A stretch of DNA of 62,572 bases from a virus. Lineage: Duplodnaviria > Heunggongvirae > Uroviricota > Caudoviricetes. The translations under genes were made by a program, and so were the position numbers. This document shows positions 1 to 26,849 of this stretch, piece after piece. The stretch is taken from the IMG/VR virus record IMGVR_UViG_2671180890_000001; one strand, 5' to 3'. Below the pieces are notes generated by a model. That model did no database searches, was not told where the DNA came from, and worked only from the letters and a program-made list of their open reading frames with translations. The first letter of the stretch is position 1. Every line of letters begins with the position of its first letter.

Positions 1-1745
1 ACTGCAGCAAAAAACAGCCAGGTTGCAGCAGCCCAAAGCGAGAGCGCGGCAGCCGGTTCTGCGACTTCAGCAGCTGGATCAGCAACTGCTGCGGCTAACA
101 GCCAGAAAGCTGCGAAGACGAGTGAAACTAACGCAAAGTCCAGCCAGACGGCAGCGAAGACCAGCGAAACGAATGCCAAAGCCAGTGAAACTGCGGCGAA
201 AAGCAGTCAGGATGCAGCGGCCCAAAGCGAGAGTGCCGCAGCCAGTTCTGCAAGCGCGGCGGCTGCTTCTGCCACTGCATCAGCTAACAGTCAAAAAGCA
301 GCAAAAACCAGTGAAACCAACGCAAAGGTGAGCGAAACAGCGGCTGCGAACTCAGCGAAAGCATCGGCAGCAAGCCAGACGGCAGCTAAAGCAAGCGAAG
401 ATGCAGCCAGAGAGTACGCAAGCCAGGCTGCGGAGCCGTATAAATATGTCTTACAGCCGCTGCCTGATGTGTGGATACCATTTAACGATTCGCTGGATAT
501 GATTACGGGCTTTTCGCCATCATATAAAAAAATTGTTATTGGTGACGATGAAATAACGATGCCTGGCGACAAGATTGTTAAGTTTAAACGTGCATCGAAA
601 GCAACCTATATTAACAAATCTGGTGTGCTGACAGAGGCTGCCATTGACGAGCCACGATTTGAACGTGATGGTCTGCTTATTGAGGGGCAAAGAACAAACT
701 ACATGCTCAATTCGGAAAGCCCTGCCAGTTGGGGGCGATCGTCAAATATGGATGTGCCCGAAACAGGGACGGATAATTTTGGTTTTACCTATGGAAAGTT
801 TGTCTGCAACGATTCTCTGATTGGGCAAACCTCAGCCATTAATATGGCATCAATTGCTGCAACAAAGTCAGTTGATGTCTCAGGCGATAATAAATATGTG
901 ACAACCTCATGTCGTTTTAAAACAGAACTGCAGGTAAGGTTGCGTATCCGGTTTGATAAATATGACGTAGCGCAACAACTTTTCTTGGTGATGCGTATAT
1001 TGATACACAAAACGCTTGAAATTAATATGACAGGCGGTGCTGCCTCAAGGATTACAGCGAGAGTCAGAAAGGACGAAGCTACCGGATGGATTTTTGCAGA
1101 GGCAACAATTCAGGCAATTGATGGGGAGTTAAAAATAGGTTCTCAGATACAGTATTCTCCTAAGCAGGGCGGGCAACCGTATCTGGTGACTATATTTATC
1201 TGGCCACCCCACAAGTAGAAAATGGGCCTTGTGTATCATCTTTTATTATATCAGGAACGACGGCGGCGACCCGCGCAAGCGATATAGTTACAGTTCCCAT
1301 TAAGAATAATTTTTATAATCTTCCTTTTACGGTTCTTTGTGAGGTACATAAGAACTGGTATAAAACGCCAAATGCAGCGCCGCGTGTTTTTGATACCGGC
1401 GGTCATCAAACCGGAGCGGCTATTATTCTTGGCTTCGGTTCTTCAGCAGATTACGACGGATTTCCTTATTGCGATATTGGAGGAGCTAACAGACGGGTAA
1501 ACGAAAACGCATCGCTTGAAAAAATGGTTATGGGATGCGTGTAAAGTCAGATCAGTCTACGTGCTCAGTAAGTAACGGCGTATATCCAGCGAAACAAAAA
1601 CCACATGGTCCTGTATTCAGAACACCGCAATTATCCGTATTGGAGGCCAGACTACAGCCGGGTTACGTCATTTATTTGGTCATGTCAGGAATTTCAGAAT
1701 ATGGCACAAGGCATTGACTGATGCTCAGGTGGGGAGTCAATCTAA
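1..1745 (+). pseudogene. stf: Side tail fibre gene, C-terminal two thirds, fold-back copy broken by homopolymer frameshifts
   Basis: Frame 1 translation matches the 793 aa product of 10583..12964(-) except at GG>G and AAA>AAAA sites near 970-1010 and an indel near 1185. Confidence 0.75.
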
Positions 1746-2026
1746 TGAAAGATTTAACACTCAAATTTGCCGACAGGGCCGACTTTTCGGCCTTTATGGA
1801 GAGTATTGGCTATTATGATGACGAGTCGATGCAGGATGATATTCTTATTGACGTGATAGGTAACGTGTACAAAGAAACCGGAGAACTTACTGAAGATGGC
1901 GAGCCGGTATGTGTTAAGGAAGACGGATATTTTGTAAACGTGCGCATCATTAATGATGCAAAAAAATCGTCAATATTCGATGAATACGTGGTTGCTGTTG
2001 AGCATCAACTTCGTGGCTGGATGTGA
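1745..2026 (+). CDS. Hypothetical acidic 93 aa protein (fold-back copy of 10302..10583)
   Basis: Identical translation to 10302..10583(-). Confidence 0.5.
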   Translation: MKDLTLKFADRADFSAFMESIGYYDDESMQDDILIDVIGNVYKETGELTEDGEPVCVKEDGYFVNVRIINDAKKSSIFDEYVVAVEHQLRGWM

Positions 2027-2035
2027 GGAAGAAAA

Positions 2036-3076
2036 ATGGCTACATCGACAGTAATTCCTGAAGACATCAAAACGCTAAAATCCGACGTTAGCAAATTAAA
2101 AAACGATCAAGGAAGCTACGCAACAAAATCATATGTAGACAGCAAAGATGAAACCGTTGGTGACTGGTCTGCTTCATGGTATCAGCAGGTATTGCCAACT
2201 AGCGGAGCTATATTTGGGAGAAAACTCCGCTCAACTCACCGGACGGCAGGTGTTGAGGATGCGTATTGCGAACTATACCTCAAAAAATGGATAGACAGTC
2301 CAGGTAACGCAATGGCGCGCCTTAACCTGAACGATAACGGGACAAACATTTGCTGGGACTTTACCAACCTTTATGGCGGTACGATGATTTTTCCCGGTGA
2401 CAGCGGATACCTCAAAATGGGTAACTGCCTTATGTCATACAGCAAGCGTGGAAGTAACGCGCTTATTAAATTTGATTACACCGACACATTACAGATCAAA
2501 TATGCCAATCATGGGTCAACCATGACATTAAACACACAGGGAACCGCTTATGCTGGTGTTACTGCTCAATTGTGGGGCAACTCCAGCCGTCCTGTTGTTT
2601 ATGAAGTCGGTGTTGATGGTGGCGCTTATATGTTCTATGCGCAGAAAAATACCGATAACACCTATATGTTAAGCGTTAATGGTGCATGTCATGCCACCGC
2701 ATTTAACCAGCATTCCGACCGGGATCTGAAAGACAACATTCAGGTGATCGATAATGCAACCGACCGCATCCGTAAAATGAACGGCTATACATACACGCTT
2801 AAAGAAAACGGTATGCCCTATGCTGGTGTCATTGCACAGGAAGCTCTGGAAGCAATCCCAGAAGTTGTAGGTTCCGCAGTGAAATATCAGGACGGTGCAA
2901 GCGGATCGGAAGGTGAAGAAGGTGAACGTTATTACACAGTAGATTATTCTGGTATTACTGGCTTGCTTGTTCAGGTAGCCAGAGAGTCAGACGACAGAAT
3001 AACAGCACTGGAAGAAGAAAACGCAGAATTAAAACAAAGATTATCTGCAATTGAGGCGGCGCTTGCGTCTAAATAA
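2036..3076 (+). CDS. Tail fibre or receptor-binding protein with C-terminal S74-type intramolecular chaperone domain (fold-back copy of 9252..10292)
   Basis: Identical 346 aa translation. Confidence 0.65.
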   Translation: MATSTVIPEDIKTLKSDVSKLKNDQGSYATKSYVDSKDETVGDWSASWYQQVLPTSGAIFGRKLRSTHRTAGVEDAYCELYLKKWIDSPGNAMARLNLNDNGTNICWDFTNLYGGTMIFPGDSGYLKMGNCLMSYSKRGSNALIKFDYTDTLQIKYANHGSTMTLNTQGTAYAGVTAQLWGNSSRPVVYEVGVDGGAYMFYAQKNTDNTYMLSVNGACHATAFNQHSDRDLKDNIQVIDNATDRIRKMNGYTYTLKENGMPYAGVIAQEALEAIPEVVGSAVKYQDGASGSEGEEGERYYTVDYSGITGLLVQVARESDDRITALEEENAELKQRLSAIEAALASK

Positions 3077-3103
3077 TATTAAGGGGCCGAGCGCCCCGTT
3101 TTA

Positions 3104-3412
3104 TTGGGTGGGATGAAAATGGATATAACACCTTTCCTTCATGCACTTTGTGCTGTGGCTGCGCAGGTACTGGTTGGTCTTTTTACCGGAAACTGGGCTT
3201 ACGGAGCGATAGCCGGTTGTACGTTCTTCATTGCGCGTGAACACACCCAGGCAGAATATCGCTGGATTGAAATGTTCGGGCATGGCAAGCGGATTAACAT
3301 GCCGTGGTGGGGCGGTTTTGATCCGCGCGTGTGGGATGTGGCAAGCCTGATGGATTTTGCTGTGCCGGTGGTGGCGTGTCTGCTGGTCTGGCTGTTGGTT
3401 TATCGTGGGTGA
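3104..3412 (+). CDS. Small membrane protein (fold-back copy of 8916..9224)
   Basis: Identical 102 aa translation, hydrophobic segments. Confidence 0.45.
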   Translation: MGGMKMDITPFLHALCAVAAQVLVGLFTGNWAYGAIAGCTFFIAREHTQAEYRWIEMFGHGKRINMPWWGGFDPRVWDVASLMDFAVPVVACLLVWLLVYRG

Positions 3413-3574
3413 AAAAAGGTGAGCTGTATATGCAACGGAGGAAGAAACCCCGTTGCTGGAAGCCTGGAAAAAGTATCGGGTGTTGTTGAATCGTGTTGAT
3501 ACATCACTATCTCCAGATATCGAGTGGCCAAGTCAACCATAAATCAATATCCCCTGCAATGCAGGGGATATTTC

Positions 3575-4540
3575 TTAATTATCAGTAGATTGTTCCTCTA
3601 GTAACAACTCAATTCTGCTTAGTATTTCTTTAGATATTTTTCGGCTATCAATTTTTATAGTTACAAAATTACCTTTATATCTAGCCGTGATCCCTTCCCC
3701 ATATTTTTTCTCGTCTTTTGTTTTTTCCTCGTCGCCAACCAGAACAGAGTCAGATAATATTTGTATAATCCGTGAAGCTTCTAAATCCTCGCCGTTTTTT
3801 TTAATTGCCAGAAGATGATGAGCAGCATTGCTCATGGCAGCCATGTTTTTTTTGTAGACCTTAAACAAAGAATCTCCAGCACGAGCTGACAGTTCTCCTG
3901 GATGATTGAAGATAGCTAATATATCTTTTGGTAGACCAGCTGTATTAATACAGCGAGTGATAATATTTCTGTCTATATTTTCAGCCTCGGCTAATGCTTT
4001 AACGTTACCATCAAAGTCATTTAGCTTGCGTAAGTATCTCTTTCCTCTTTCGTATGCACTAATAGGCCTATAATCGTTACCAATTTGGGATAACCAATGC
4101 ATCTGTTCATCGTCGAGATCACCTATTAAGACGCGATAGTCACATCCTGTTAATATCGCTGCTTTTCTTCTACGTGAGCCGTCAGCGACTTCAACGATTC
4201 CAGACACTTTTCTGGCGAAAGCTGGATTTTGTTGTCCAGACGTTAGAAAAGATGGGATTAAATCGGCTAGAGAGGATTCATTTAATAAATCTTGATCGCG
4301 TTCATTACCTAGCCATACCATTGTTGCCATTTCAACTTTATCTGCGGGAATTGTCTCTAACTTAAAGTTAACATTACGTCCGCATACTGGCAAAGTTATG
4401 CTGTTACCGGTTAATGAACTCAGTTGACGTTTTAAATCACCAACCATAGGTGATACGGGCTGATGTTCAGGGGCATGATGATTATTACTCATAATGCGAT
4501 TAATATCTGGAGCATTTTTTAGAAGAGAGCGCTGTTTCAT
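3575..4540 (-). CDS. sopB: SopB/ParB partition protein (fold-back copy)
   Basis: Identical to 7788..8753(+). Confidence 0.85.
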   Translation of the reverse strand: MKQRSLLKNAPDINRIMSNNHHAPEHQPVSPMVGDLKRQLSSLTGNSITLPVCGRNVNFKLETIPADKVEMATMVWLGNERDQDLLNESSLADLIPSFLTSGQQNPAFARKVSGIVEVADGSRRRKAAILTGCDYRVLIGDLDDEQMHWLSQIGNDYRPISAYERGKRYLRKLNDFDGNVKALAEAENIDRNIITRCINTAGLPKDILAIFNHPGELSARAGDSLFKVYKKNMAAMSNAAHHLLAIKKNGEDLEASRIIQILSDSVLVGDEEKTKDEKKYGEGITARYKGNFVTIKIDSRKISKEILSRIELLLEEQSTDN

Positions 4541-5707
4541 TATTCGTTCTCCCAGCGAGGTTTTATTAGATCATCAAAAATTTCTCGGCAAACAGGGTCC
4601 CATATAGAAACAGCATTTCTCCATGCATTCAATGTTGAACGTTGGTTTGCTGCTTGTTCAAATACTGTTCTCATTTTTATCTGGCCTTTACCTACTTCAT
4701 CGGTAACGCGTACAACCTGACGTAATACCATTGATCCCCATGTATTTCTTATTTGTTCTTCCATCCATCGTGATTGATTCCCTGTAGTGAGACTATATTT
4801 AGTCAGAAGTAAGCGAACGGTTGGCTCAAATCCACCTAGGTCAACGCTTTCCAATAGATCGAGAAGCATTGTGAAAAAACTGTAGAACAGAAGCGTAATC
4901 AAATAATTCTGCAGGTGTAGCAACAACAATAACGTCAGCGGCACAAACAACGTTAATGGTTCCTGTACCGAGGTTCGGAGCACTATCTATAACGATAACA
5001 TCGTAGTTATCCCAAACTGATTCAATAGCTGCGCGCAGCATAAGGTGTGGAGGATGAGGCAATTTACCCTGAGCATGATATTGCATGAGATCTGTTTCTA
5101 TACGATGTAAAGCTAGGCAGCTAGGGATAATGTCTAGCCCAGGCCAACATGTTGGCTTTATAGCATATTCAGCGTTATCGCGTTCTCCTAAGTAAAATGG
5201 CAGTAAAGTATCCTCGGCATGGATATGTAAATCAGGAACATAACCGTGATACATAGAGGCCGTGCCTTGAGGATCGTTACCTTCAACCAAAAGAACACGA
5301 TGACCTTGTAATGCTAACCATTGAGCTTGATGTACCGCAGACGATGTTTTATAAACGCCGCCTTTGTGTGACATAACGGCAAGCACAACAGGGTTTTTAT
5401 CTTGTGGTCGTTGGTTTGGGTTGCCAAAAACTGCTCGCATACTGTTGATTTGATCTATGGTATAACCAGCACGACGTTCAATTCTTCCTCTCATTTCAAA
5501 GTCAGGTGCAGGTAAACGCCCGCTCTTCTCAGCATCTCTAATTGCTTGAGGAGTTACACCAATTAAATCTGCTACTTCAGTTATACCCCATCGGCGGGTG
5601 ATACGCCGAGCTTCAGGACTATCATCACCGAATTGAGCGATAGCAATTGCTTGGGTCATTTCTTGACCTCTCGTAACACAATCTTGCAATAACTTTTTCA
5701 AAGACAT
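4540..5707 (-). pseudogene. sopA: SopA/ParA partition ATPase, fold-back copy with a 1-nt homopolymer frameshift (A6 here versus T5 in the primary copy near 7450)
   Basis: ORFs 4841..5707 and 4540..4983 together reproduce the 388 aa SopA of 6622..7788 in two frames. Confidence 0.8.
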
Positions 5708-6143
5708 ACTGTCATCTCCAGCTTGTAACTTTGCTTAATAATTAAATCTTTGCTTATTTCTAGCAAATTTGCATGAAAAAGGCAAAGCAAAACGAAAAAC
5801 GCAAAGGTGAATATTTGAGCTAAATCATCTTTTGTTCCCCTCCCGAAATGCATAAAACGAACAACGATATAATCATAACTAATTGATATTTATTATCTTT
5901 TTTAAAGAAAGGAAATCATGTAAAACTAGGGAAACATGATAAGAATCATCAATGAGATACGTTTTCTCTATTAGTTCTCCCAATCTTACCAATACGAGAA
6001 CATAAACAGAGAACATAAAAATCAAGTAATGATACAAACACAATAAAGAACATAAATAAAGAATTAAAACCAATGCTAAATAAAGCAGTACATAATATGA
6101 GAACATTACACCAAATGAGAACATTAATCAAGAACACAACGAA

Positions 6144-6185
6144 ACATAATTCCCCATTATACGTGCGTATAATGGGGAATTATGT
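6144..6185. repeat. Left hairpin telomere (telL) read-through: 20 bp arms around a non-self-complementary TG centre at 6164-6165
   Basis: ACATAATTCCCCATTATACG-TG-CGTATAATGGGGAATTATGT; arms closely resemble the N15 telO palindrome. Confidence 0.85.
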
Positions 6186-6189
6186 TTCG

Positions 6190-6460
6190 TTGTGTTCTTG
6201 ATTAATGTTCTCATTTGGTGTAATGTTCTCATATTATGTACTGCTTTATTTAGCATTGGTTTTAATTCTTTATTTATGTTCTTTATTGTGTTTGTATCAT
6301 TACTTGATTTTTATGTTCTCTGTTTATGTTCTCGTATTGGTAAGATTGGGAGAACTAATAGAGAAAACGTATCTCATTGATGATTCTTATCATGTTTCCC
6401 TAGTTTTACATGATTTCCTTTCTTTAAAAAAGATAATAAATATCAATTAGTTATGATTAT
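6190..6460. promoter_or_regulatory. AT-rich iteron array (about 6 copies of TATGTTCTC-like motif) between telL and sopA; candidate sop promoter or protelomerase/partition protein binding region
   Basis: Repeated ATGTTCTC / GTTGTGTTCT motifs read directly; the predicted ORFs here are mirror-symmetric and low complexity. Confidence 0.35.
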
Positions 6461-6621
6461 ATCGTTGTTCGTTTTATGCATTTCGGGAGGGGAACAAAAG
6501 ATGATTTAGCTCAAATATTCACCTTTGCGTTTTTCGTTTTGCTTTGCCTTTTTCATGCAAATTTGCTAGAAATAAGCAAAGATTTAATTATTAAGCAAAG
6601 TTACAAGCTGGAGATGACAGT

Positions 6622-7788
6622 ATGTCTTTGAAAAAGTTATTGCAAGATTGTGTTACGAGAGGTCAAGAAATGACCCAAGCAATTGCTATCGCTCAATTCG
6701 GTGATGATAGTCCTGAAGCTCGGCGTATCACCCGCCGATGGGGTATAACTGAAGTAGCAGATTTAATTGGTGTAACTCCTCAAGCAATTAGAGATGCTGA
6801 GAAGAGCGGGCGTTTACCTGCACCTGACTTTGAAATGAGAGGAAGAATTGAACGTCGTGCTGGTTATACCATAGATCAAATCAACAGTATGCGAGCAGTT
6901 TTTGGCAACCCAAACCAACGACCACAAGATAAAAACCCTGTTGTGCTTGCCGTTATGTCACACAAAGGCGGCGTTTATAAAACATCGTCTGCGGTACATC
7001 AAGCTCAATGGTTAGCATTACAAGGTCATCGTGTTCTTTTGGTTGAAGGTAACGATCCTCAAGGCACGGCCTCTATGTATCACGGTTATGTTCCTGATTT
7101 ACATATCCATGCCGAGGATACTTTACTGCCATTTTACTTAGGAGAACGCGATAACGCTGAATATGCTATAAAGCCAACATGTTGGCCTGGGCTAGACATT
7201 ATCCCTAGCTGCCTAGCTTTACATCGTATAGAAACAGATCTCATGCAATATCATGCTCAGGGTAAATTGCCTCATCCTCCACACCTTATGCTGCGCGCAG
7301 CTATTGAATCAGTTTGGGATAACTACGATGTTATCGTTATAGATAGTGCTCCGAACCTCGGTACAGGAACCATTAACGTTGTTTGTGCCGCTGACGTTAT
7401 TGTTGTTGCTACACCTGCAGAATTATTTGATTACGCTTCTGTTCTACAGTTTTTCACAATGCTTCTCGATCTATTGGAAAGCGTTGACCTAGGTGGATTT
7501 GAGCCAACCGTTCGCTTACTTCTGACTAAATATAGTCTCACTACAGGGAATCAATCACGATGGATGGAAGAACAAATAAGAAATACATGGGGATCAATGG
7601 TATTACGTCAGGTTGTACGCGTTACCGATGAAGTAGGTAAAGGCCAGATAAAAATGAGAACAGTATTTGAACAAGCAGCAAACCAACGTTCAACATTGAA
7701 TGCATGGAGAAATGCTGTTTCTATATGGGACCCTGTTTGCCGAGAAATTTTTGATGATCTAATAAAACCTCGCTGGGAGAACGAATAA
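6622..7788 (+). CDS. sopA: SopA/ParA partition ATPase, F-plasmid SopA type
   Basis: 388 aa; Walker-type KGGVYKTS motif; near full-length resemblance to F SopA (from memory). Confidence 0.95.
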   Translation: MSLKKLLQDCVTRGQEMTQAIAIAQFGDDSPEARRITRRWGITEVADLIGVTPQAIRDAEKSGRLPAPDFEMRGRIERRAGYTIDQINSMRAVFGNPNQRPQDKNPVVLAVMSHKGGVYKTSSAVHQAQWLALQGHRVLLVEGNDPQGTASMYHGYVPDLHIHAEDTLLPFYLGERDNAEYAIKPTCWPGLDIIPSCLALHRIETDLMQYHAQGKLPHPPHLMLRAAIESVWDNYDVIVIDSAPNLGTGTINVVCAADVIVVATPAELFDYASVLQFFTMLLDLLESVDLGGFEPTVRLLLTKYSLTTGNQSRWMEEQIRNTWGSMVLRQVVRVTDEVGKGQIKMRTVFEQAANQRSTLNAWRNAVSIWDPVCREIFDDLIKPRWENE

Positions 7789-8753
7789 TGAAACAGCGCT
7801 CTCTTCTAAAAAATGCTCCAGATATTAATCGCATTATGAGTAATAATCATCATGCCCCTGAACATCAGCCCGTATCACCTATGGTTGGTGATTTAAAACG
7901 TCAACTGAGTTCATTAACCGGTAACAGCATAACTTTGCCAGTATGCGGACGTAATGTTAACTTTAAGTTAGAGACAATTCCCGCAGATAAAGTTGAAATG
8001 GCAACAATGGTATGGCTAGGTAATGAACGCGATCAAGATTTATTAAATGAATCCTCTCTAGCCGATTTAATCCCATCTTTTCTAACGTCTGGACAACAAA
8101 ATCCAGCTTTCGCCAGAAAAGTGTCTGGAATCGTTGAAGTCGCTGACGGCTCACGTAGAAGAAAAGCAGCGATATTAACAGGATGTGACTATCGCGTCTT
8201 AATAGGTGATCTCGACGATGAACAGATGCATTGGTTATCCCAAATTGGTAACGATTATAGGCCTATTAGTGCATACGAAAGAGGAAAGAGATACTTACGC
8301 AAGCTAAATGACTTTGATGGTAACGTTAAAGCATTAGCCGAGGCTGAAAATATAGACAGAAATATTATCACTCGCTGTATTAATACAGCTGGTCTACCAA
8401 AAGATATATTAGCTATCTTCAATCATCCAGGAGAACTGTCAGCTCGTGCTGGAGATTCTTTGTTTAAGGTCTACAAAAAAAACATGGCTGCCATGAGCAA
8501 TGCTGCTCATCATCTTCTGGCAATTAAAAAAAACGGCGAGGATTTAGAAGCTTCACGGATTATACAAATATTATCTGACTCTGTTCTGGTTGGCGACGAG
8601 GAAAAAACAAAAGACGAGAAAAAATATGGGGAAGGGATCACGGCTAGATATAAAGGTAATTTTGTAACTATAAAAATTGATAGCCGAAAAATATCTAAAG
8701 AAATACTAAGCAGAATTGAGTTGTTACTAGAGGAACAATCTACTGATAATTAA
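7788..8753 (+). CDS. sopB: SopB/ParB centromere-binding protein
   Basis: 321 aa; ParB motif GSRRRKAA; start overlaps sopA stop (TAATGA). Confidence 0.9.
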   Translation: MKQRSLLKNAPDINRIMSNNHHAPEHQPVSPMVGDLKRQLSSLTGNSITLPVCGRNVNFKLETIPADKVEMATMVWLGNERDQDLLNESSLADLIPSFLTSGQQNPAFARKVSGIVEVADGSRRRKAAILTGCDYRVLIGDLDDEQMHWLSQIGNDYRPISAYERGKRYLRKLNDFDGNVKALAEAENIDRNIITRCINTAGLPKDILAIFNHPGELSARAGDSLFKVYKKNMAAMSNAAHHLLAIKKNGEDLEASRIIQILSDSVLVGDEEKTKDEKKYGEGITARYKGNFVTIKIDSRKISKEILSRIELLLEEQSTDN

Positions 8754-8754
8754 G

Positions 8755-8783
8755 AAATATCCCCTGCATTGCAGGGGATATTG
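8755..8783. terminator. Bidirectional hairpin terminator after sopB
   Basis: Perfect inverted repeat ATATCCCCTGC-A-TTGCAGGGGATAT. Confidence 0.5.
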
Positions 8784-8915
8784 ATTTATGGTTGACTTGG
8801 CCACTCGATATCTGGAGATAGTGATGTATCAACACGATTCAACAACACCCGATACTTTTTCCAGGCTTCCAGCAACGGGGTTTCTTCCTCCGTTGCATAT
8901 ACAGCTCACCTTTTT

Positions 8916-9224
8916 TCACCCACGATAAACCAACAGCCAGACCAGCAGACACGCCACCACCGGCACAGCAAAATCCATCAGGCTTGCCACATCCCACACG
9001 CGCGGATCAAAACCGCCCCACCACGGCATGTTAATCCGCTTGCCATGCCCGAACATTTCAATCCAGCGATATTCTGCCTGGGTGTGTTCACGCGCAATGA
9101 AGAACGTACAACCGGCTATCGCTCCGTAAGCCCAGTTTCCGGTAAAAAGACCAACCAGTACCTGCGCAGCCACAGCACAAAGTGCATGAAGGAAAGGTGT
9201 TATATCCATTTTCATCCCACCCAA
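8916..9224 (-). CDS. Small integral membrane protein, function unknown
   Basis: 102 aa ORF with hydrophobic segments; start uncertain. Confidence 0.45.
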   Translation of the reverse strand: MGGMKMDITPFLHALCAVAAQVLVGLFTGNWAYGAIAGCTFFIAREHTQAEYRWIEMFGHGKRINMPWWGGFDPRVWDVASLMDFAVPVVACLLVWLLVYRG

Positions 9225-9251
9225 TAAAACGGGGCGCTCGGCCCCTTAATA

Positions 9252-10292
9252 TTATTTAGACGCAAGCGCCGCCTCAATTGCAGATAATCTTTGTTTTAAT
9301 TCTGCGTTTTCTTCTTCCAGTGCTGTTATTCTGTCGTCTGACTCTCTGGCTACCTGAACAAGCAAGCCAGTAATACCAGAATAATCTACTGTGTAATAAC
9401 GTTCACCTTCTTCACCTTCCGATCCGCTTGCACCGTCCTGATATTTCACTGCGGAACCTACAACTTCTGGGATTGCTTCCAGAGCTTCCTGTGCAATGAC
9501 ACCAGCATAGGGCATACCGTTTTCTTTAAGCGTGTATGTATAGCCGTTCATTTTACGGATGCGGTCGGTTGCATTATCGATCACCTGAATGTTGTCTTTC
9601 AGATCCCGGTCGGAATGCTGGTTAAATGCGGTGGCATGACATGCACCATTAACGCTTAACATATAGGTGTTATCGGTATTTTTCTGCGCATAGAACATAT
9701 AAGCGCCACCATCAACACCGACTTCATAAACAACAGGACGGCTGGAGTTGCCCCACAATTGAGCAGTAACACCAGCATAAGCGGTTCCCTGTGTGTTTAA
9801 TGTCATGGTTGACCCATGATTGGCATATTTGATCTGTAATGTGTCGGTGTAATCAAATTTAATAAGCGCGTTACTTCCACGCTTGCTGTATGACATAAGG
9901 CAGTTACCCATTTTGAGGTATCCGCTGTCACCGGGAAAAATCATCGTACCGCCATAAAGGTTGGTAAAGTCCCAGCAAATGTTTGTCCCGTTATCGTTCA
10001 GGTTAAGGCGCGCCATTGCGTTACCTGGACTGTCTATCCATTTTTTGAGGTATAGTTCGCAATACGCATCCTCAACACCTGCCGTCCGGTGAGTTGAGCG
10101 GAGTTTTCTCCCAAATATAGCTCCGCTAGTTGGCAATACCTGCTGATACCATGAAGCAGACCAGTCACCAACGGTTTCATCTTTGCTGTCTACATATGAT
10201 TTTGTTGCGTAGCTTCCTTGATCGTTTTTTAATTTGCTAACGTCGGATTTTAGCGTTTTGATGTCTTCAGGAATTACTGTCGATGTAGCCAT
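9252..10292 (-). CDS. Second tail fibre or receptor-binding protein with C-terminal peptidase S74-type intramolecular chaperone domain
   Basis: 346 aa; C-terminal SDRDLKDNI ... YTVDYSGITGLLVQ ... coiled-coil tail typical of auto-cleaving fibre chaperone domains. Confidence 0.7.
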   Translation of the reverse strand: MATSTVIPEDIKTLKSDVSKLKNDQGSYATKSYVDSKDETVGDWSASWYQQVLPTSGAIFGRKLRSTHRTAGVEDAYCELYLKKWIDSPGNAMARLNLNDNGTNICWDFTNLYGGTMIFPGDSGYLKMGNCLMSYSKRGSNALIKFDYTDTLQIKYANHGSTMTLNTQGTAYAGVTAQLWGNSSRPVVYEVGVDGGAYMFYAQKNTDNTYMLSVNGACHATAFNQHSDRDLKDNIQVIDNATDRIRKMNGYTYTLKENGMPYAGVIAQEALEAIPEVVGSAVKYQDGASGSEGEEGERYYTVDYSGITGLLVQVARESDDRITALEEENAELKQRLSAIEAALASK

Positions 10293-10301
10293 TTTTCTTC
10301 C

Positions 10302-10583
10302 TCACATCCAGCCACGAAGTTGATGCTCAACAGCAACCACGTATTCATCGAATATTGACGATTTTTTTGCATCATTAATGATGCGCACGTTTACAAAATA
10401 TCCGTCTTCCTTAACACATACCGGCTCGCCATCTTCAGTAAGTTCTCCGGTTTCTTTGTACACGTTACCTATCACGTCAATAAGAATATCATCCTGCATC
10501 GACTCGTCATCATAATAGCCAATACTCTCCATAAAGGCCGAAAAGTCGGCCCTGTCGGCAAATTTGAGTGTTAAATCTTTCAT
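10302..10583 (-). CDS. Hypothetical acidic protein between the two fibre genes
   Basis: 93 aa ORF; start overlaps stf stop. Confidence 0.5.
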   Translation of the reverse strand: MKDLTLKFADRADFSAFMESIGYYDDESMQDDILIDVIGNVYKETGELTEDGEPVCVKEDGYFVNVRIINDAKKSSIFDEYVVAVEHQLRGWM

Positions 10584-12964
10584 TAGATTGACTCCCCCAC
10601 CTGAGCATCAGTCAATGCCTTGTGCCATATTCTGAAATTCCTGACATGACCAAATAAATGACGTAACCCGGCTGTAGTCTGGCCTCCAATACGGATAATT
10701 GCGGTGTTCTGAATACAGGACCATGTGGTTTTTGTTTCGCTGGATATACGCCCGTTACTTACTGAGCACGTAGACTGATCTGACTTTACACGCATCCCCA
10801 TAACCATTTTTTCAAGCGATGCGTTTTCGTTTACCCGTCTGTTAGCTCCTCCAATATCGCAATAAGGAAATCCGTCGTAATCTGCTGAAGAACCGAAGCC
10901 AAGAATAATAGCCGCTCCGGTTTGATGACCGCCGGTATCAAAAACACGCGGCGCTGCATTTGGCGTTTTATACCAGTTCTTATGTACCTCACAAAGAACC
11001 GTAAAAGGAAGATTATAAAAATTATTCTTAATGGGAACTGTAACTATATCGCTTGCGCGGGTCGCCGCCGTCGTTCCTGATATAATAAAAGATGATACAC
11101 AAGGCCCATTTTCTACTTGTGGGGTGGCCAGATAAATATAGTCACCAGATACGGTTGCCCCGCCCTGCTTAGGAGAATACTGTATCTGAGAACCTATTTT
11201 TAACTCCCCATCAATTGCCTGAATTGTTGCCTCTGCAAAAATCCATCCGGTAGCTTCGTCCTTTCTGACTCTCGCTGTAATCCTTGAGGCAGCACCGCCT
11301 GTCATATTAATTTCAAGCGTTTGTGTATCAATATACGCATCACCAAGAAAAGTTGTTGCGCTACCGTCATATTTATCAAACCGGATACGCAACCTTACCT
11401 GCAGTTCTGTTTTAAAACGACATGAGGTTGTCACATATTTATTATCGCCTGAGACATCAACTGACTTTGTTGCAGCAATTGATGCCATATTAATGGCTGA
11501 GGTTTGCCCAATCAGAGAATCGTTGCAGACAAACTTTCCATAGGTAAAACCAAAATTATCCGTCCCTGTTTCGGGCACATCCATATTTGACGATCGCCCC
11601 CAACTGGCAGGGCTTTCCGAATTGAGCATGTAGTTTGTTCTTTGCCCCTCAATAAGCAGACCATCACGTTCAAATCGTGGCTCGTCAATGGCAGCCTCTG
11701 TCAGCACACCAGATTTGTTAATATAGGTTGCTTTCGATGCACGTTTAAACTTAACAATCTTGTCGCCAGGCATCGTTATTTCATCGTCACCAATAACAAT
11801 TTTTTTATATGATGGCGAAAAGCCCGTAATCATATCCAGCGAATCGTTAAATGGTATCCACACATCAGGCAGCGGCTGTAAGACATATTTATACGGCTCC
11901 GCAGCCTGGCTTGCGTACTCTCTGGCTGCATCTTCGCTTGCTTTAGCTGCCGTCTGGCTTGCTGCCGATGCTTTCGCTGAGTTCGCAGCCGCTGTTTCGC
12001 TCACCTTTGCGTTGGTTTCACTGGTTTTTGCTGCTTTTTGACTGTTAGCTGATGCAGTGGCAGAAGCAGCCGCCGCGCTTGCAGAACTGGCTGCGGCACT
12101 CTCGCTTTGGGCCGCTGCATCCTGACTGCTTTTCGCCGCAGTTTCACTGGCTTTGGCATTCGTTTCGCTGGTCTTCGCTGCCGTCTGGCTGGACTTTGCG
12201 TTAGTTTCACTCGTCTTCGCAGCTTTCTGGCTGTTAGCCGCAGCAGTTGCTGATCCAGCTGCTGAAGTCGCAGAACCGGCTGCCGCGCTCTCGCTTTGGG
12301 CTGCTGCAACCTGGCTGTTTTTTGCTGCAGTTTCACTGGCTTTAGCATTCGTTTCGCTGGTCTTCGCTGCCGTCTGGCTGGACTTTGCGTTGGTTTCGCT
12401 CGTCTTTGCGGCTGTCTCGCTATTTTTCGCGTTGGTTTCTGATTTTTTAGCTGCTGTCGCGGAGTTTGCCGATGCAGTCTGTGAGGTCGCTGCCGCCTGT
12501 GCGCTGTTAGCTGCATTCGTTTCTGAGGTTTTCGCCGCGTTCTTCGATGATGCCGCTGCAGTTTCGGATTTCTTTGCCGCCGCTGCGCTCTGAGAAGCGG
12601 CTTCGGCGTTGCGTGCCGCTTCTTCCACCATTTCCTGAAAACGGCGCAATGCCTCCGGCATGACATCATCTTCCGTCATGGCACCGAGAAAATCATTCAG
12701 CGTACCTGGTCTGGAGCCTTCATAGACGGTAATGGTCCCGGCATGTGAAGGCGGAAAACCTTCAACCAGCAGGGTGACGCTGTACTGGCCATACTCAACA
12801 TCCATGCTGTAACGCCCGGCTTCATCAGGATTTTCAGAGGCCACCGTGTTCACCAGTACCGTGGTGCTGTTACGCTTTGCCTTCAGTTGAATAGTGCAGT
12901 TCTGTATTGGTTTTCCCGCACCATCTTTCAGCACACCTGAGATTTTTACTGCTGCCATATCCAC
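10583..12964 (-). CDS. stf: Side tail fibre protein: lambda Stf-like N-terminus, Ala/Ser-rich tandem repeats, divergent C-terminal domain
   Basis: 793 aa; N-terminal KISGVLKDG...SHAGTITVYE as in lambda Stf; repeats of KTSETNAKxSxTAA. Confidence 0.85.
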   Translation of the reverse strand: MDMAAVKISGVLKDGAGKPIQNCTIQLKAKRNSTTVLVNTVASENPDEAGRYSMDVEYGQYSVTLLVEGFPPSHAGTITVYEGSRPGTLNDFLGAMTEDDVMPEALRRFQEMVEEAARNAEAASQSAAAAKKSETAAASSKNAAKTSETNAANSAQAAATSQTASANSATAAKKSETNAKNSETAAKTSETNAKSSQTAAKTSETNAKASETAAKNSQVAAAQSESAAAGSATSAAGSATAAANSQKAAKTSETNAKSSQTAAKTSETNAKASETAAKSSQDAAAQSESAAASSASAAAASATASANSQKAAKTSETNAKVSETAAANSAKASAASQTAAKASEDAAREYASQAAEPYKYVLQPLPDVWIPFNDSLDMITGFSPSYKKIVIGDDEITMPGDKIVKFKRASKATYINKSGVLTEAAIDEPRFERDGLLIEGQRTNYMLNSESPASWGRSSNMDVPETGTDNFGFTYGKFVCNDSLIGQTSAINMASIAATKSVDVSGDNKYVTTSCRFKTELQVRLRIRFDKYDGSATTFLGDAYIDTQTLEINMTGGAASRITARVRKDEATGWIFAEATIQAIDGELKIGSQIQYSPKQGGATVSGDYIYLATPQVENGPCVSSFIISGTTAATRASDIVTVPIKNNFYNLPFTVLCEVHKNWYKTPNAAPRVFDTGGHQTGAAIILGFGSSADYDGFPYCDIGGANRRVNENASLEKMVMGMRVKSDQSTCSVSNGRISSETKTTWSCIQNTAIIRIGGQTTAGLRHLFGHVRNFRIWHKALTDAQVGESI

Positions 12965-12967
12965 TCC

Positions 12968-13000
12968 ACAAAAAAGCCCGCCTGAACCGGCGGGCTGTCA
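12968..13000 (-). terminator. Rho-independent terminator downstream of lom
   Basis: GCCCGCC/GGCGGGC stem followed by a T-run on the minus strand. Confidence 0.5.
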
Positions 13001-13022
13001 TAACACTGTGTTACCTGGCTAA

Positions 13023-13622
13023 TCAGAATTTATAACCGACACCCACGATGAAACCGTCAGTGCGCCAGTCACCACTGCCGGAGCCTTCATAAGCAATATC
13101 AATGGCCACGGATTCGGTCGGGTTAAACTGCACGCCAGCCCCCCACGCCAGAGACGTGTTGCTGTGGCGACCGTCATCACTTCCGGTCAGCACATCGTGC
13201 GTTTTCCCCTTGCTGTCAGTTACGCGGAGATAATCCCCGGAAAAAGTCGAAACACGGCTGTAAGCCACACCTGCCATCGCATAAGCACTGAACCATTCAT
13301 TCACGCGTACAGACGGCCCCGCCATCATGCTGAACCAGCGGTTACGCACTGAATCTTCATGCCAGCGGGTATCGCTGTAATGCGTTTTTTGCTCATCTTT
13401 GGCATTGGCATAACTGAATGACGTCACCAGCCCCAGCGTGTCCGTAAATTCATAACGGTATTTCACGTTAATGCCCTTCAGGTCATCGTTGCCGGGCATA
13501 TCAGTATGGGTCTGAAGATACCCGGCGCTTAGTGTGGACTGATGCTCTGCTGCGCTCGCTGGCGTACCAGCGGCGACCAGCCAGACTACTGTGGACAGAA
13601 TAACAGCACATAATTTACGCAT
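13023..13622 (-). CDS. lom: Lom-family outer membrane protein (Ail/Lom)
   Basis: 199 aa; signal peptide; C-terminal AYEGSGSGDWRTDGFIVGVGYKF as in lambda Lom. Confidence 0.85.
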   Translation of the reverse strand: MRKLCAVILSTVVWLVAAGTPASAAEHQSTLSAGYLQTHTDMPGNDDLKGINVKYRYEFTDTLGLVTSFSYANAKDEQKTHYSDTRWHEDSVRNRWFSMMAGPSVRVNEWFSAYAMAGVAYSRVSTFSGDYLRVTDSKGKTHDVLTGSDDGRHSNTSLAWGAGVQFNPTESVAIDIAYEGSGSGDWRTDGFIVGVGYKF

Positions 13623-13635
13623 AATTACCTCTCGC

Positions 13636-13668
13636 TTTTCTGCAATAAAAAAGGCGCCATTTCTGGCG
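13636..13668 (-). terminator. Rho-independent terminator downstream of J
   Basis: GGCGCCA-TTTC-TGGCGCC hairpin followed by a T-run on the minus strand. Confidence 0.45.
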
Positions 13669-13689
13669 CCCGTATCTGGGTTATAAAAT

Positions 13690-16600
13690 TCAGCTGATAC
13701 TGATGCCTGCAGTGGCTTTCTTCATCACAACAACCAGCAAATCGCTGATACTTGCTGTGGGATACCAGCCATTTACCCACCATGCTGATACAGAAAACTC
13801 CAGTGTCATTACGCCACTGCCTGCAGGCATATCAATAACACCCGTGTAAATCAGAGTATTATCCAGAGCCGTTCGGTTATAAATTTCAGCCCCGTTTTTC
13901 TTCACTATCAGGCGGCATGACGAATAAGTATCGCTATTCTCCCGTTCATGTCTGGCACCGCTGAAAGCCACCGCTGGAATAACAATTTGCCGGTCAAACG
14001 GCTGATCGTCATAAACCCTGACGGTAATGGTCCCTGATGGCCACCGCTCCGGTGCACGGGAGTCCCGGGGGAAAGCTTTGCCCACTGTTTTAACGAGATC
14101 GCCTTCAATCTGGTTCGCGGACAGTTTTCCCAGAACCCGACAGTTCTCGTTAATCGTGACGTTGTTGAGCGTCCCGGAGTTCGCATTCACGCTACCGCTG
14201 ATATCGGCATTTTTCGCCGTCAGCCGCCCGTCCGGTGTCAGGGAAAATGCCGGAGGATTACCGCCGCTGGTAATGGTGGGAGCCGTCAGATATTTCAGGA
14301 ACACTTCATTCATGAATATCTGGTTGCCCTGCGCCACAAACATCGGCGTTTCATTCCCGTTTGCCGGGTCAATAAACGCGATACGGTTAGCGGCAACCAG
14401 GAACTGACTCAGTTTGCCTTCCTCCGTATCCTCCATGCTGAGGCCAAGCCCCGCGACATAATGTTTGCCGTCTTTGGTCTGCTCAATTTTGACGCCCCAC
14501 ATGGCATTCCATTTATCGTTGGCATCTTTCCACTCTTTCGAAAACTCATCCAGTCTGCTGGCGTTATCCTCCGTCAGGTCGACTTTTTCCAGCAGCTCCT
14601 TGCCGAGATGGGATTCGGTTATCTGGCCTTTGAAAAAATCCAGGTAACCTTCTGCATCATCGCTCGCCCGACCGACAGCCTCCACGAATGCCGATTTGCC
14701 AACGGTGTTCACACTGCGGATGTAAAAATAATAATCATGGCCCGGCTTGATATTGATACTGGCGGCTATCCAGTACAGCGCCGTACCAAGATAACGTGCG
14801 CTGGTTTCAACCTGCCTGATATCCGTAATCCGCTTTTCCGAGAACCAGAACTCAAACTGTACCGTCGGATCATAAACGGCAAGATGCGGCGTTGCGGTTA
14901 TCTGAAAATAGCCCGGCGTCAGCTCAATCCGCGACGGTGCTGCCGGTGCGGCAATCCGGAACGATACCGACGCCGGATCTCCCTGCTGCCCCCACGCATT
15001 TACCGCCCGGACTGTCAGCCTGTAGTTCCCCAGCGCCAGTTGCGTGAAGCGGTATGTGGTTTCCGTCGTCCGGGCCGTGCTGACCAGCCGCTCACTGCCG
15101 TCGTCCGCTGTTACGGTCAGACGGAGCAGGAAGCTCACGCCCTTCACCACCTTCGGTGTGTCCCATCGCGCCAGCACCTGATATTCCCCGCTGTCTGCAG
15201 TGACTTCTGCGGTCAGGTGCTGCACCGCTGGCGGCGTGACACCGTTCACCGTGCCACTCTGTTCGCCGTCAAAGTGCGCCCCGTTATCCACGATGGCCTC
15301 TTTTTCCGGCACATGCTGCACGGCGGTGATGGCATACGTGCCGTCGTCGTTCTCACGGATACTCACGCAGCGGAACAGTCGCTGGCGCAGCGTCGGCAGC
15401 TTCAGCCCCCATACGCTGTATTCAGCAACACCGTCAGGAACACGGCTCACTTTTACCTTCACGCCGTCGGTGACGGACTGAACCTCCACGCTGACCGGAT
15501 TGCCACTTCCGTCAACCAGGCTTATCAGCGTGGTACCGGAGGATGGCAGCGTGATTTCACGGTCGAGCGTCAGCGTCCGGGTCTGGCTGTTCACCGCCAG
15601 CACACGACCACCGGTGCTGATACCGGCATAGTCATCATCACAGATTTCAATAACATCGCCCGGTACATGGCGAAGCCCTTCTGCGCCGACGCTGAAATCC
15701 ACGGTCTGCGTTTCCAGCAGTTCTGTTTTAATCAGCCACAGCCCGGCGCGGTGTGCCTGCCCCCGGCTGGTACAGCCAAAGGCGTCCATCTTCGTGACGT
15801 TACGACCGTAACGGAGAATGGCCTGCGTATCTTCAACAAGCTCTGTCGCCGTCTCCCAGCCGTTGTTCGGGTCAATCCAGTTCACCTCAACGGCATTATG
15901 GCGGTCCTTCAGGGCGCTGAAACTGTAGCGGAACGGCGCGCCATCATCCGGCATCACCACATTACTGCGGTTATAGGTCCACACCTTATCCGACGGCCGG
16001 TCCTGCACGAACGTCAGCGTCTGCCCGTTCCATACCGGCATACAGCGCATCGCCGAGCAGAAATCACTGAGCACATCCCACGCCTTGCGCTGTGTGGTCA
16101 GGTAAGCGTTACAGGTGATGCGCGGCTCCGTGCCGCCAAAGCCGTCCGGCACCGACTGGTCGCAGTACTGGCCGATGACATACAGCGCCCATTTATCCAC
16201 ATCCGCCGCACCAAGACGTTTCCCCATGCCGTAGCGCGGATGGGTCAGCATATCCCACAGACACCAGGCCATGTTGTTGCTGTATGCCGGTTTAAACGTC
16301 CCGTCCCAGATACCGCTGTATTGCCGCGTCTGCGGGTTATAGTTCGACGGCACCTGCAGAATGCGCCCGCGAAGATGATAATTACGGCTCACCTGCTGGC
16401 TGCCGAACTGCTCCGAATCCACCTGTACGCCGACCAGTGCCGTGTTCGGGTAGCCCTGTTTCACATCGATGATTTCGGTGTATGACGACCAGAGCGTTTT
16501 GTTCTGCAGCTGGTCTGTGGTGCTGTCCGGCGTCATCCTGCGCATCCGGATATTAAACGGGCGCGGCGGCAGGTTATCCACCACCACCGAGGCCAGATAC

Positions 16601-17085
16601 TGCGAGGTGGTTTTGCCCTTAATGGTGATGTCTTTTTCTGTCACCCAGCCACCGTTACGCTGTATCTGAACCAGCAGGCGGACTTCCGATGGATTCCTGT
16701 CCCCCTTTGAGGTGGTTTCCACCAGTGCCTGCACACCGAAGGTAAAGCGCAGACGGTCGATGTTTGCCGACGTGATGGTCCGGGTGATCGGCGTGTCATA
16801 TTTCACTTCCGTACCCAGCACCGTCTCGGAACCGGAGGATTCAAATCCCTCCGGCGGTGTCTGCTCCTGCTCACCTGCCCGGAACACCACCGTGACACCG
16901 GAGATGTTGGTATTCCCCTCACTGTCCAGCACCGGTGTACTGTTCAGCAGCACGCTTTTTAATCCATCCACCGGACCTTCAATCGGCCCTTCGCTGATGG
17001 CATCGATCACACTCAGTAACTGCGTGGATTTCAGGTTATCCTTCGCTTCGCGCGGGGTATGCCCCTTACTGCTGCCTTTACCCAT
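13690..17085 (-). CDS. J: Tail tip / host specificity protein J with a non-lambda C-terminal receptor-binding region
   Basis: 1131 aa; lambda J-like from [19 protein letters not shown] through about residue 980, then divergent last ~150 aa. Confidence 0.95.
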
Positions 17086-17145
17086 TCGTCATGCTCCATA
17101 AACGACAAAACCGCCCGGAGGCGGTTTCACATAAAACATTTTGCA

Positions 17146-17817
17146 TCAGCGACCAATCACCACAACCTGACCACCGTCCCCTTCGTCTGCCGTGCTGATC
17201 TCCTGAGAAACCACCCGCGACCCCACACGCATTTCACCGTACAGAACAGGCAGAACATTGCCCTGAGCAACCATGTTATCCAGTGAGGAAAAATAGGTGT
17301 TCTGTTTGCCGTTATCCGTTGTCTGTGTACGGGGAGTTCTGGCTTTCGGTGCCAGCATCTGCGCCACACCACCGAGCACCATACTGGCACCGAGAGAAAA
17401 CAGGATGCCGGTCATACCACCGGCCCCAATGGCTGCCCCCCATGCTGCAAGGGTGGCTCCGGCAGTAAAGAATGATCCGGCAATGGCGGCAGCTCCCAGG
17501 ACAATCTGGAATACACCACCTGACTTGGCCCCGGCGACTCTGGGAACAATATGAATCACAGCGCCATCAGGCAGAGTCTCATGTAACTGCGCCGTTAATC
17601 CGGACGTGCTGACATCCCGCCCGGCAATCCGTACCTGATACCAGCCGTCGCTCAGTTTCTGACGAAACGCCGGGAGCTGTGTGGCCAGTGCGCGGATGGC
17701 TTCAGCCCCCGTTTTCACACGAAGGTCGATGCGGCGGCCAAATCGTTGCAAATCCCCGTAAAGGCAGATGCGTGCCATTCCCGGTGACGCCAGAGGGAGT
17801 GTGTGCGTCGCTGCCAT
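17146..17817 (-). CDS. I: Tail assembly protein I
   Basis: 223 aa, lambda I-like. Confidence 0.9.
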   Translation of the reverse strand: MAATHTLPLASPGMARICLYGDLQRFGRRIDLRVKTGAEAIRALATQLPAFRQKLSDGWYQVRIAGRDVSTSGLTAQLHETLPDGAVIHIVPRVAGAKSGGVFQIVLGAAAIAGSFFTAGATLAAWGAAIGAGGMTGILFSLGASMVLGGVAQMLAPKARTPRTQTTDNGKQNTYFSSLDNMVAQGNVLPVLYGEMRVGSRVVSQEISTADEGDGGQVVVIGR

Positions 17818-18458
17818 TTGTCGGTATACCTCTCTCGTTTACTCAGTTGTTCAGGAATATGGTGCAGCAGCTCGCCATCACCACAGTAAATGGCGGCATG
17901 ATTCGGCACCGATGAACCAAAGCAGCACAGCAGCACGTCGCCAGGCTGCGCCTCTGTCAGTGCGACACGGTAAAAACCAGTCGCCTCCATATTGTCAAGA
18001 TAGAGATTCTGACCGTTACGCCACCAGTCATCCCCGCGATGAAAATCCGGCATCTCAATCCCCGCCAGATGATAAGCATCCCGGAACAGCGTGTAACAGT
18101 CCGTCACCCCGTGCTCAAAGCGACGCCCGGTGAGATGCGGCACACAGCGGAACTTGTGAATCGCCCCCCGGCAGACCAGCCACCACGGCAAATCACTCTG
18201 CACCTGCAGCCGCCGGTCAGCCTCACTCAGCCAGGGCAGACCACCGGGATGACTGTGGACCAGTGCCACAATCTCACCCTGCATCTCTGCCTGCAGCCAG
18301 TCCTCCGGAGCCATCCGGAAATAATCCTCCGGCTCACCGGAGATATTCACGCAGGGGAAATATCTTTCCCCCTCCGGCGCTCTCACCACGAAGCCGCACG
18401 ACTCCGCTGGCGCACATCGCCGGGCGTGCGCCAGAATCGCTGATTCTGTCTCTGTCAT
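17715..18458 (-). CDS. K: Tail assembly protein K (NlpC/P60-like)
   Basis: Lambda K-like; ORF start may be upstream of the true start. Confidence 0.85.
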   Translation of the reverse strand: MTETESAILAHARRCAPAESCGFVVRAPEGERYFPCVNISGEPEDYFRMAPEDWLQAEMQGEIVALVHSHPGGLPWLSEADRRLQVQSDLPWWLVCRGAIHKFRCVPHLTGRRFEHGVTDCYTLFRDAYHLAGIEMPDFHRGDDWWRNGQNLYLDNMEATGFYRVALTEAQPGDVLLCCFGSSVPNHAAIYCGDGELLHHIPEQLSKRERYTDKWQRRTHSLWRHREWHASAFTGICNDLAAASTFV

Positions 18459-18463
18459 GGGAT

Positions 18464-19162: not shown

Positions 19163-19491
19163 CAGTTCACCACCTGTTTAAACTCTGCGCTGAACTCAAC
19201 ACGCAACATACTGACCTGCGACGACCATTTTGCGCAGGTCACCTTTATCTGCCTGTAACCATAAGGCGGCGTCCACAGAAAGGCCTTCCAGCCCCCGTGC
19301 TCAGCCAGAAACGACTCCAGCGCCGTGGCCTCCTCACGGGAGACAGACAGCGTCACGCTGTACGTTTTCAGGTCAGCGTTCAGCCCGGCAGGCGCACGCT
19401 GGGAATAGCCATCACCAAAGCGCACCTCCCTGACGGAAGGAGCCGATGTCACATCCATCCCGGGTTTCACTTTCCAGCGGAAGGTTTTCAT
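19162..19491 (-). CDS. M: Minor tail protein M
   Basis: 109 aa, lambda M-like. Confidence 0.9.
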   Translation of the reverse strand: MKTFRWKVKPGMDVTSAPSVREVRFGDGYSQRAPAGLNADLKTYSVTLSVSREEATALESFLAEHGGWKAFLWTPPYGYRQIKVTCAKWSSQVSMLRVEFSAEFKQVVN

Positions 19492-22880: not shown

Positions 22881-22895
22881 CGCTGACTCTCCGGA

Positions 22896-23636: not shown

Positions 23637-23643
23637 AGCGTCC

Positions 23644-24613: not shown

Positions 24614-24624
24614 ACATCCCCCTT

Positions 24625-24978: not shown

Positions 24979-24989
24979 AGCGCCTCCCG

Positions 24990-25385: not shown

Positions 25386-25426
25386 GGACTCCTCCACAGA
25401 GAGAAAATGGCCCCGAAGGGCCATGA

Positions 25427-26840: not shown

Positions 26841-26849
26841 AAACATCCC

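Follow-up and report, generated by a model that had tools for sequence, protein, structure and literature searches.

All known protelomerases cut the two strands of their target 6 bp apart (PMC3558466). In the case of the distant relative TelA, the hairpin product of a fully palindromic site has all bases paired save two at the apex (PMC3558466), the central two base pairs are unwound before cleavage and mismatches at these positions stimulate the reaction, while a site with an altered central dinucleotide was resolved like wild type at 30 °C (PMC10686437). For phage N15, further repeats flank the 56-bp core of the target, and the Y425F variant of the protelomerase TelN is catalytically dead (PMC12624138). 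For the Borrelia telomeres, SMRT wrap-around data revealed non-complementary tip bases at many ends, and Casjens and colleagues predicted flip-flop of these bases through replicated inverted dimers (PMC12958805). Outside the target-requirement papers (Deneke 2002 and Aihara 2007), the literature yielded no direct data on how TelN or TelK respond to a single change in the central pair.

The stretch of DNA analysed here (the window, 62,572 bp) was identified by an exact-protein look-up as GenBank CP014491.1 (pG749_3; GCA_001566635.1) from E. coli ST131-H22 strain G749. It is rotated by 421 bp, with the CP014491.1 position equal to the window position + 421, as given by the record ranges of loci L081, L082 and L087. 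The G749 DNA was obtained from a growing lysogen culture and sequenced unsheared by PacBio RSII (P6-C4), assembly was by HGAP3 and Quiver, and the raw data are public under BioProject PRJNA307507 (PMC4994348).

The 20-nt arm ACATAATTCCCCATTATACG occurs exactly four times in the window, at 6144-6163 (+), 6166-6185 (-), 54526-54545 (+) and 54548-54567 (-), with no occurrence expected on the basis of 100 dinucleotide-preserving shuffles. The bases between the arms are TG at 6164-6165 and CA at 54546-54547. The 42-bp palindromes, the shared arms and both centres listed in the preliminary description are thus reproduced exactly. The first site (6144..6185) corresponds to the left, sopAB-side hairpin telomere and has a predicted inter-cut hexamer CGTGCG at 6162-6167, while the second (54526..54567) corresponds to the right, telN-side telomere with the same arms and a predicted hexamer CGCACG at 54544-54549. 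Here, the TelN cut positions are deduced from the 6-bp stagger (PMC3558466) in combination with an alignment to the telRL sites of N15 and phiKO2. [quoted passage not shown] A telO-type inverted repeat with the inner arm CCATTATACG is present exactly at both tips, and the same inner arm is found in N15 and phiKO2.

The 42 bp constitute only the portion common to both tips, and each tip forms the centre of a far longer palindrome. Exact arms extend for 1289 bp at the left tip (4875..6163 and 6166..7454) and for 3661 bp at the right tip (50885..54545 and 54548..58208), leaving an error-free stretch of 1.3 kb and 3.7 kb, respectively, around the tips. When single-base indels are allowed, the palindromes span 1..12331 and 46940..62151, in agreement with the proposal of read-through hairpin telomeres of an N15-like element (12.3-kb and 15.2-kb palindromes centred on an N15-type telO). 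Apart from 13 homopolymer indels overall, the central dinucleotide is the only position in each palindrome that is not self-complementary. The giant palindromes arise because reads went round the tip from one strand to the other, and their exact centring on the tel site at both ends is, at the level of sequence, consistent with covalently closed ends. On the left, the palindrome is first interrupted at an A6 versus A5 run in sopA (4874 / 7455), 1289 bp from the tip. In the independent PacBio assembly of RL465 plasmid III (NZ_LT906558.1, tip at 54943), the palindrome breaks at the identical distance, with an exact arm of 1289 bp, and this shared break suggests a homopolymer error that recurs where wrap-around coverage is low. 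Close to the left tip (within 170 bp), six copies of ATGTTCT(C/T), the reverse complement of which is GAGAACAT-like, are located at 6193..6334 (+), and three GAACA/TGTTC copies occur on the telN side at 54446-54514. These resemble the GGAACAT and GAGAACAT motifs flanking N15 telRL and may be accessory TelN-binding sites.

The contig consists of the reverse complement of 6165..12754, followed by 6165..54546 and the reverse complement of 46940..54546. The central segment (6165..54546, +) is the 48,382-bp unit genome of the linear plasmid-prophage, starting with GCGTATAATGG and ending with CCATTATACGC, as defined by self-BLAST and collinearity with pEA8_3 and p2011C-4180-1. Sequence wraps around for 6.6 kb and 7.6 kb beyond the respective tips, such that ~14.2 kb is duplicated in all. 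The left outer copy (1..6164) is the reverse complement of 6165..12331, with 7 homopolymer indel errors and a deviant T at 6164. The right outer copy (54547..62151) is the reverse complement of 46940..54546, with 2 indel errors, a deviant A at 54547 and a second telN at 54738..56633 (+). Compared copy against copy, the duplicated 14.2 kb differs by 13 one-base homopolymer indels and by 0 substitutions. Each of these indels is an error in an outer copy, as the inner copy matches the relatives at 13/13 positions, and 10 are located within 2.2 kb of the contig ends. Two TelN proteins are annotated in CP014491.1 (AML08217.1 and AML08218.1), and genes of the outer copies are annotated twice. These features mark the pG749_3 contig as a wrap-around product of PacBio assembly, the underlying molecule being a 48.4-kb linear plasmid-prophage of N15 type with, on the sequence evidence, covalently closed hairpin ends. 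CP014491 is not a 62.6-kb plasmid, but a 48.4-kb hairpin-ended linear prophage plus a 14.2 kb duplicate carrying frameshift-type errors.

The protelomerase gene telN (52460..54355, -; 631 aa) has its start codon 191 bp from the right tip. The encoded protein contains the TelK_N, TelK_muzzle, ResT-TelK_cat and TelK_stirrup Pfam domains (E-values from 1e-25 to 1e-50), and is 78.1% identical to N15 TelN, 73.4% to phiKO2 TelK and 43.2% to PY54 Tel, which bears out its earlier identification as TelN. The catalytic Tyr context DDENTQLHYKQFKLANF is the same as around Y425 in N15 and in phiKO2. A Bro-N gene adjoins telN. On the opposite side, sopA (6622..7788, +) adjoins the left tip and is followed by sopB (7788..8753, +), both assigned by Pfam (AAA_31/CbiA and SoPB_HTH). 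In relatives, including pEA8_3, p2011C-4180-1 and several WGS/metagenome contigs, both flanks are joined in the order telN - tel site - sopA, an arrangement that by its gene order is the natural form of the reconstructed telRL. The pG749_3 genome is collinear with N15-like plasmids annotated in E. albertii, whose genes include terminase-to-tail, cI/cro/Q and partition functions. An N15-like organisation is thus supported by Pfam for sopAB and by collinearity for the lambda-like head/tail genes and the immunity region, the large Rep ORF being putative. The element shares the adjacent protelomerase, catalytic Tyr, telO arms, wrap-around palindromes and genome organisation of the N15-type telomere-phage family, with the CGCGCG hexamer as the only one of the features compared that differs in the record, and is a member of that family with an ordinary N15-type tel site.

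The GC content of the window is sharply mosaic: it is ~57% in the lambda-like head/tail block (12000-32000) and 35-49%, for the most part 40-48%, in the regions of replication and immunity and those near the telomeres. A ~190-bp tandem pair (84% identical) is located at 12005-12424, mirrored at 97-327, inside a 793-aa tail-fibre ORF (10583..12964, -), and a separate 172-bp repeat pair occurs at 32656-32827 and 34441-34611 (91% identical).

We searched for the TG/CA centre in other public sequences; the scan pattern CCATTATACGNNCGTATAATGG is its own reverse complement, so that double matches on the + and - strands say nothing on self-complementarity. There were 0 exact matches to CCATTATACGTGCGTATAATGG (the CA form also being covered) in viral_contigs and genome_contigs, and 0 matches to the TG/CA 42-mer among plasmids and 5,426 complete E. 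coli genomes, using a 42-bp megablast that seeds only across the centre. The same 42-mer with a CG centre was found at 100% in 14 plasmid records. Across 77 loci, made up of four related phage/plasmid records and the scan hits, the centre was CG in 65, AT in 6, TA in 3, AG in 2 and CA in 1. Contigs coding for an identical TelN have CGCGCG in 5/5 independent cases, one of which has identical arms. CGCGCG is also present in three relatives that are 99.1-99.8% identical across the left arm, one being a wrap-around scaffold. An independent assembly of G749 or pG749_3 was not retrieved by look-ups of the exact TelN and of a 346-aa ORF from the tail-fibre region, the nearest relatives thus recovered being 99.1-99.8% identical and all of CG type. 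Alignment of the junctions with N15, phiKO2 and PY54 confirmed arms of N15 type, but the asymmetric centre is found in none of the three: all contain CGCGCG, even though PY54 Tel is only 43% identical. Within the public sequence searched (five collections), the TG/CA centre is private to this record, compared with well over 80 related CGCGCG sites. The tel site had been described as part of a diverged telRL/TelN pair. While both arms and TelN do diverge from N15, the asymmetry is not a trait of that pair because identical TelN and identical arms occur with CGCGCG elsewhere, and the asymmetric centre is not linked to any enzyme change.

The N15 telO inner arms CCATTATACG..CGTATAATGG also occur in metagenome/MAG contigs with AT, TA, AG or CA centres and quite different outer flanks (L043, L045, L054, L056, L057, L063, L064, L069, L070, L073, L075 and L076). 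Their neighbours include Schlafen/AlbA, GT8-Ocnus and MACPF genes and are eukaryote-virus-like, with protelomerase genes absent from the fetched flanks; L043 (AG) has the same flanks as L064 and L075 (AT). Phaeoviruses have been reported with an N15-like telRL (PMC13236599), and these loci may derive from giant viruses of that kind. In the metagenome NN scan, L069 alone shares a TG/CA centre with pG749_3; it has different outer arms and no protelomerase in the fetched flanks, and by these signs belongs to an unrelated element. The AG/CA-centred sites L043, L069 and L073 were dropped as natural precedents since the flanks fetched contain no protelomerase.

At arm position 9 (window 6152 / 6177 and 54534 / 54559; AATT[N]CCCATTATACG), all four bases occur among the relatives (L001-L004, L080-L086): pG749_3 has C, PhiR46_1 and YDC107_1 have T, the E. 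albertii plasmids have A and N15 has G. The changes usually affect both arms together. In L084 (DAEWCW010000059), one arm has C while its partner has the complement of A, so that symmetry between the telRL arms is not required here. In addition, the metagenome scaffold L088 (ENA ERZ28585607 scaffold_64; 94,158 bp) is approximately twice the unit length and is arranged as sopA - tip - sopA with CGCGCG at the tip. It has the appearance of an almost complete head-to-head wrap-around, the source being a relative with 99.8% identity in the left arm.

The reading we favour, with a probability of roughly 55%, is that TG/CA reflects a real and recent single transition, CGCGCG to CGTGCG, in the inter-cut hexamer, and that it was carried by the founding telRL. 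The same change at both tips is expected in this case because a single mutant telRL would found the lysogen. The chance of a random substitution at exactly both apexes is negligible because the 14.2 kb duplicate shows 13 indels and 0 substitutions, and random consensus substitution was rejected on these grounds. A methylation-type or motif-wide miscall of CGCG was likewise rejected: the genome retains 7 CGCGCG and 169 CGCG, while changes between CGCG and CGTG/CACG relative to the closest relative are equally frequent in both directions (7 to 7). RL465 plasmid III, which was PacBio SMRT-finished in 2016 (PMC4994348), provides a control from the same platform with an identical 42-mer. It wraps round both tips and has CGCGCG at both, as do other wrap-around assemblies at the tip. 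Wrap-around alone thus does not create TG/CA, and a generic PacBio artefact at tel sequences was rejected. A maximum-likelihood consensus of a TG/CA mixture would, on an argument from mismatch counts, yield TG or CA but never CG, which agrees with the record. DNA folding predictions returned one and the same hairpin and energy whether the centre was TG, CA or CG. The tolerance of TelA for mismatches and sequence change at the central pair (PMC10686437) and the non-complementary tips of many Borrelia telomeres (PMC12958805) likewise favour a real variant. Two unpaired bases at each tip had been presented as a consequence of the asymmetry; given this equality and the two unpaired apex bases of fully palindromic hairpins noted above for TelA (PMC3558466), that consequence does not hold.

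The main competitor, which we consider possible though short of probable, is a consensus artefact: the true centre would be CGCGCG at both tips, with T6164 and A54547 being errors confined to the poorly supported outer copies. Such errors could have been introduced by a read-direction-dependent miscall just past the apex, or as unpolished draft bases where palindromic reads map ambiguously. The location of the deviant bases fits well with this proposal. T6164 and A54547 each form the first base of an outer copy, the outer copies hold all 13 other errors, and positions 6165 and 54546 of the inner genome, with its GCGTATAATGG start and CCATTATACGC end, carry the canonical bases. The inbound arm of a hairpin subread must map to the inner genome, and an 'A for G' call after the apex would therefore fall on the first outer base at both tips, a pattern that has a probability of 1/4 under flip-flop. 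An artefact would also account for a variant that is unique to this record among well over 80 CGCGCG sites, some with identical TelN and arms. No part of the tel site is better conserved than the hexamer, CGCGCG being retained as far as PY54, and TelK cleaves an altered hexamer but forms no hairpins on it, which suggests that the hexamer is constrained (PMC3558466). However, RL465 yielded CG at both tips from the same platform and an identical 42-mer, and the G749 assembly errs through homopolymer indels, not a single substitution being present in 2 x 14.2 kb. Furthermore, the tips are located in the error-free part of the palindromes, CGCG is not miscalled motif-wide, and the chance of two independent random errors falling at mirror-image positions is negligible. 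No mechanism known to us would produce a miscall directly past the apex. A real transition is also in keeping with C to T being the change expected at an unpaired cytosine. Deamination of the apex cytosine in stored DNA, to an extent that would give T in most molecules, was rejected by reference to known rates.

If the transition is real, its inheritance can be outlined from the mechanism of the family. The right and left ends would be joined as telRL in the phage or circular form, and a TelN dimer would cut both strands 6 bp apart (TATA/CGNNCG/TATA, slashes marking the cuts). Each 3' end would then be joined to the 5' end of the complementary strand, giving two hairpins, and the head-to-head junctions formed after plasmid replication would be resolved likewise by TelN. 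A mutation of CGCGCG to CGTGCG in the founding telRL would leave both ends carrying the change, which would be tolerated because no protelomerase hairpin pairs its two apex bases. The staggered-cut geometry put forward in the preliminary description is sound: a telRL with CGTGCG on the top strand, cut 6 bp apart, gives one TG and one CA tip. Each subsequent round of replication and resolution would again produce one TG and one CA daughter tip, such that both ends become ~1:1 flip/flop mixtures and the consensus at each tip reports the isomer with more reads.

The complementarity of the left and right centres had been taken as the signature of staggered cleavage. This cannot serve as a diagnostic because the majority isomer sets each tip, and flip-flop in a growing lysogen makes TG-left/CA-right one of four equally likely outcomes. 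A stricter version, in which the left end is fixed as TG and the right end as CA as direct, unscrambled products of one asymmetric telRL, is very improbable. The + strand does read TG on the left and CA on the right, as expected from a single resolution of a telRL with CGTGCG on the top strand. However, the DNA came from a growing lysogen (PMC4994348), in which resolution of head-to-head dimers would scramble each end within a generation, and the same scrambling is predicted for Borrelia (PMC12958805). Palindromic reads can moreover be placed in either orientation, and the contig does not correspond to one physical strand.

The final 421 bases of the window (62152..62572), the far end of the left wrap-around at which the GenBank record starts, are the reverse complement of 12332..12754 and run on into base 1 by self-BLAST. 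Least credible of all is a true 62.6-kb circle (a partial head-to-head dimer or replication intermediate with an internal deletion), which would suit this continuation and the 62,572-bp plasmid (CP014491) given in the source paper (PMC4994348), but was rejected because 62151/62152, the sole non-palindromic join in the window, is placed by the record coordinates at the record end and start and is therefore not a sequenced junction, lacks homology, would fuse the middle of a 1331-aa replication-protein-sized ORF with the tail-fibre ORF, and has indel errors accumulating towards it as at contig ends, while relatives measure 45-49 kb.

Returning to the favoured reading of a real CGCGCG to CGTGCG transition, pG749_3 would be the first N15-type telomere phage with a non-palindromic resolution-site core; TelN would tolerate a change in the apex pair of the otherwise invariant hexamer and the ends would be ~1:1 isomer mixtures, a combined proposition for which we see the odds as even. 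In that event, even the best-conserved portion of the enterobacterial tel site can vary at its two unpaired apex positions, and the variant provides a natural marker for hairpin-telomere flip-flop in a tractable system, with E. coli genetics, the N15 toolkit and public single-molecule reads at hand. It would amount to no more than a single-base change in a known site, within a replicon that had been deposited before, and both a non-complementary apex and its predicted flip-flop have already been described for ResT-type telomeres. Apart from the apex, this is a textbook N15-type telomere in a known plasmid-prophage.

The closest described system is Ravinvirus N15. As in N15, the protelomerase gene adjoins the tel site, sopAB lies on the opposite side and the prophage is hairpin-ended; the telO inner arm CCATTATACG is identical, and TelN (78.1%) has the same four domains and catalytic Tyr context. 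The 20-nt arms had been said to differ from those of N15 at only a few positions, and this is indeed the case (2 and 4 of 20). The pG749_3 arms are perfectly symmetric over 20 nt, in contrast to the two arms of N15, which are unlike each other. The palindrome shared by the ends is 42 bp in length compared with the 56-bp repeat in N15, and the centre is CGTGCG/CGCACG as opposed to CGCGCG. More closely related are the E. coli/E. albertii N15-like elements PhiR46_1, YDC107_1, pEA8_3, p2011C-4180-1 and RL465 plasmid III, with 97-99.8% DNA identity around telN. The TelN protein of p2011C-4180-1 (CP126913, L083) is identical to that of pG749_3, pEA8_3 is annotated with the same protelomerase accession (WP_052985248.1), and RL465 plasmid III and 13 other plasmids have 42-mer arms identical to those of pG749_3. 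Several of these relatives are also long-read wrap-around assemblies, but all have CGCGCG, and some differ at arm position 9 (AATT[C/T/A/G]CCC). The phiKO2 TelK and PY54 Tel proteins belong to the same enzyme family, with 6-bp staggered cuts and CGCGCG between the cuts. phiKO2 shares the telO inner arm, while TelK is 73% identical and the pG749_3 arm differs from the phiKO2 arms at 4 and 2 positions. PY54 is more distant, with Tel 43% identical and arms that are unrelated outside TACGCGCGTA. Among the N15-like phages, a TG/CA apex would be the sole case in well over 80 sites. For poxvirus hairpins, flip-flop is classical, with a Holliday-junction resolvase in place of a protelomerase. The Borrelia telomeres offer the nearest parallel to the apex itself: bases at the apex need not pair, as seen via SMRT wrap-around, and flip-flop is predicted (PMC12958805). 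They differ in the ResT enzyme lineage, and in that non-complementary tips are common (7/12 telomeres in one strain; PMC12958805), whereas the apex of the pG749_3 consensus, with T opposite G and C opposite A, is seen in one record only and at the first base of low-quality outer copies.
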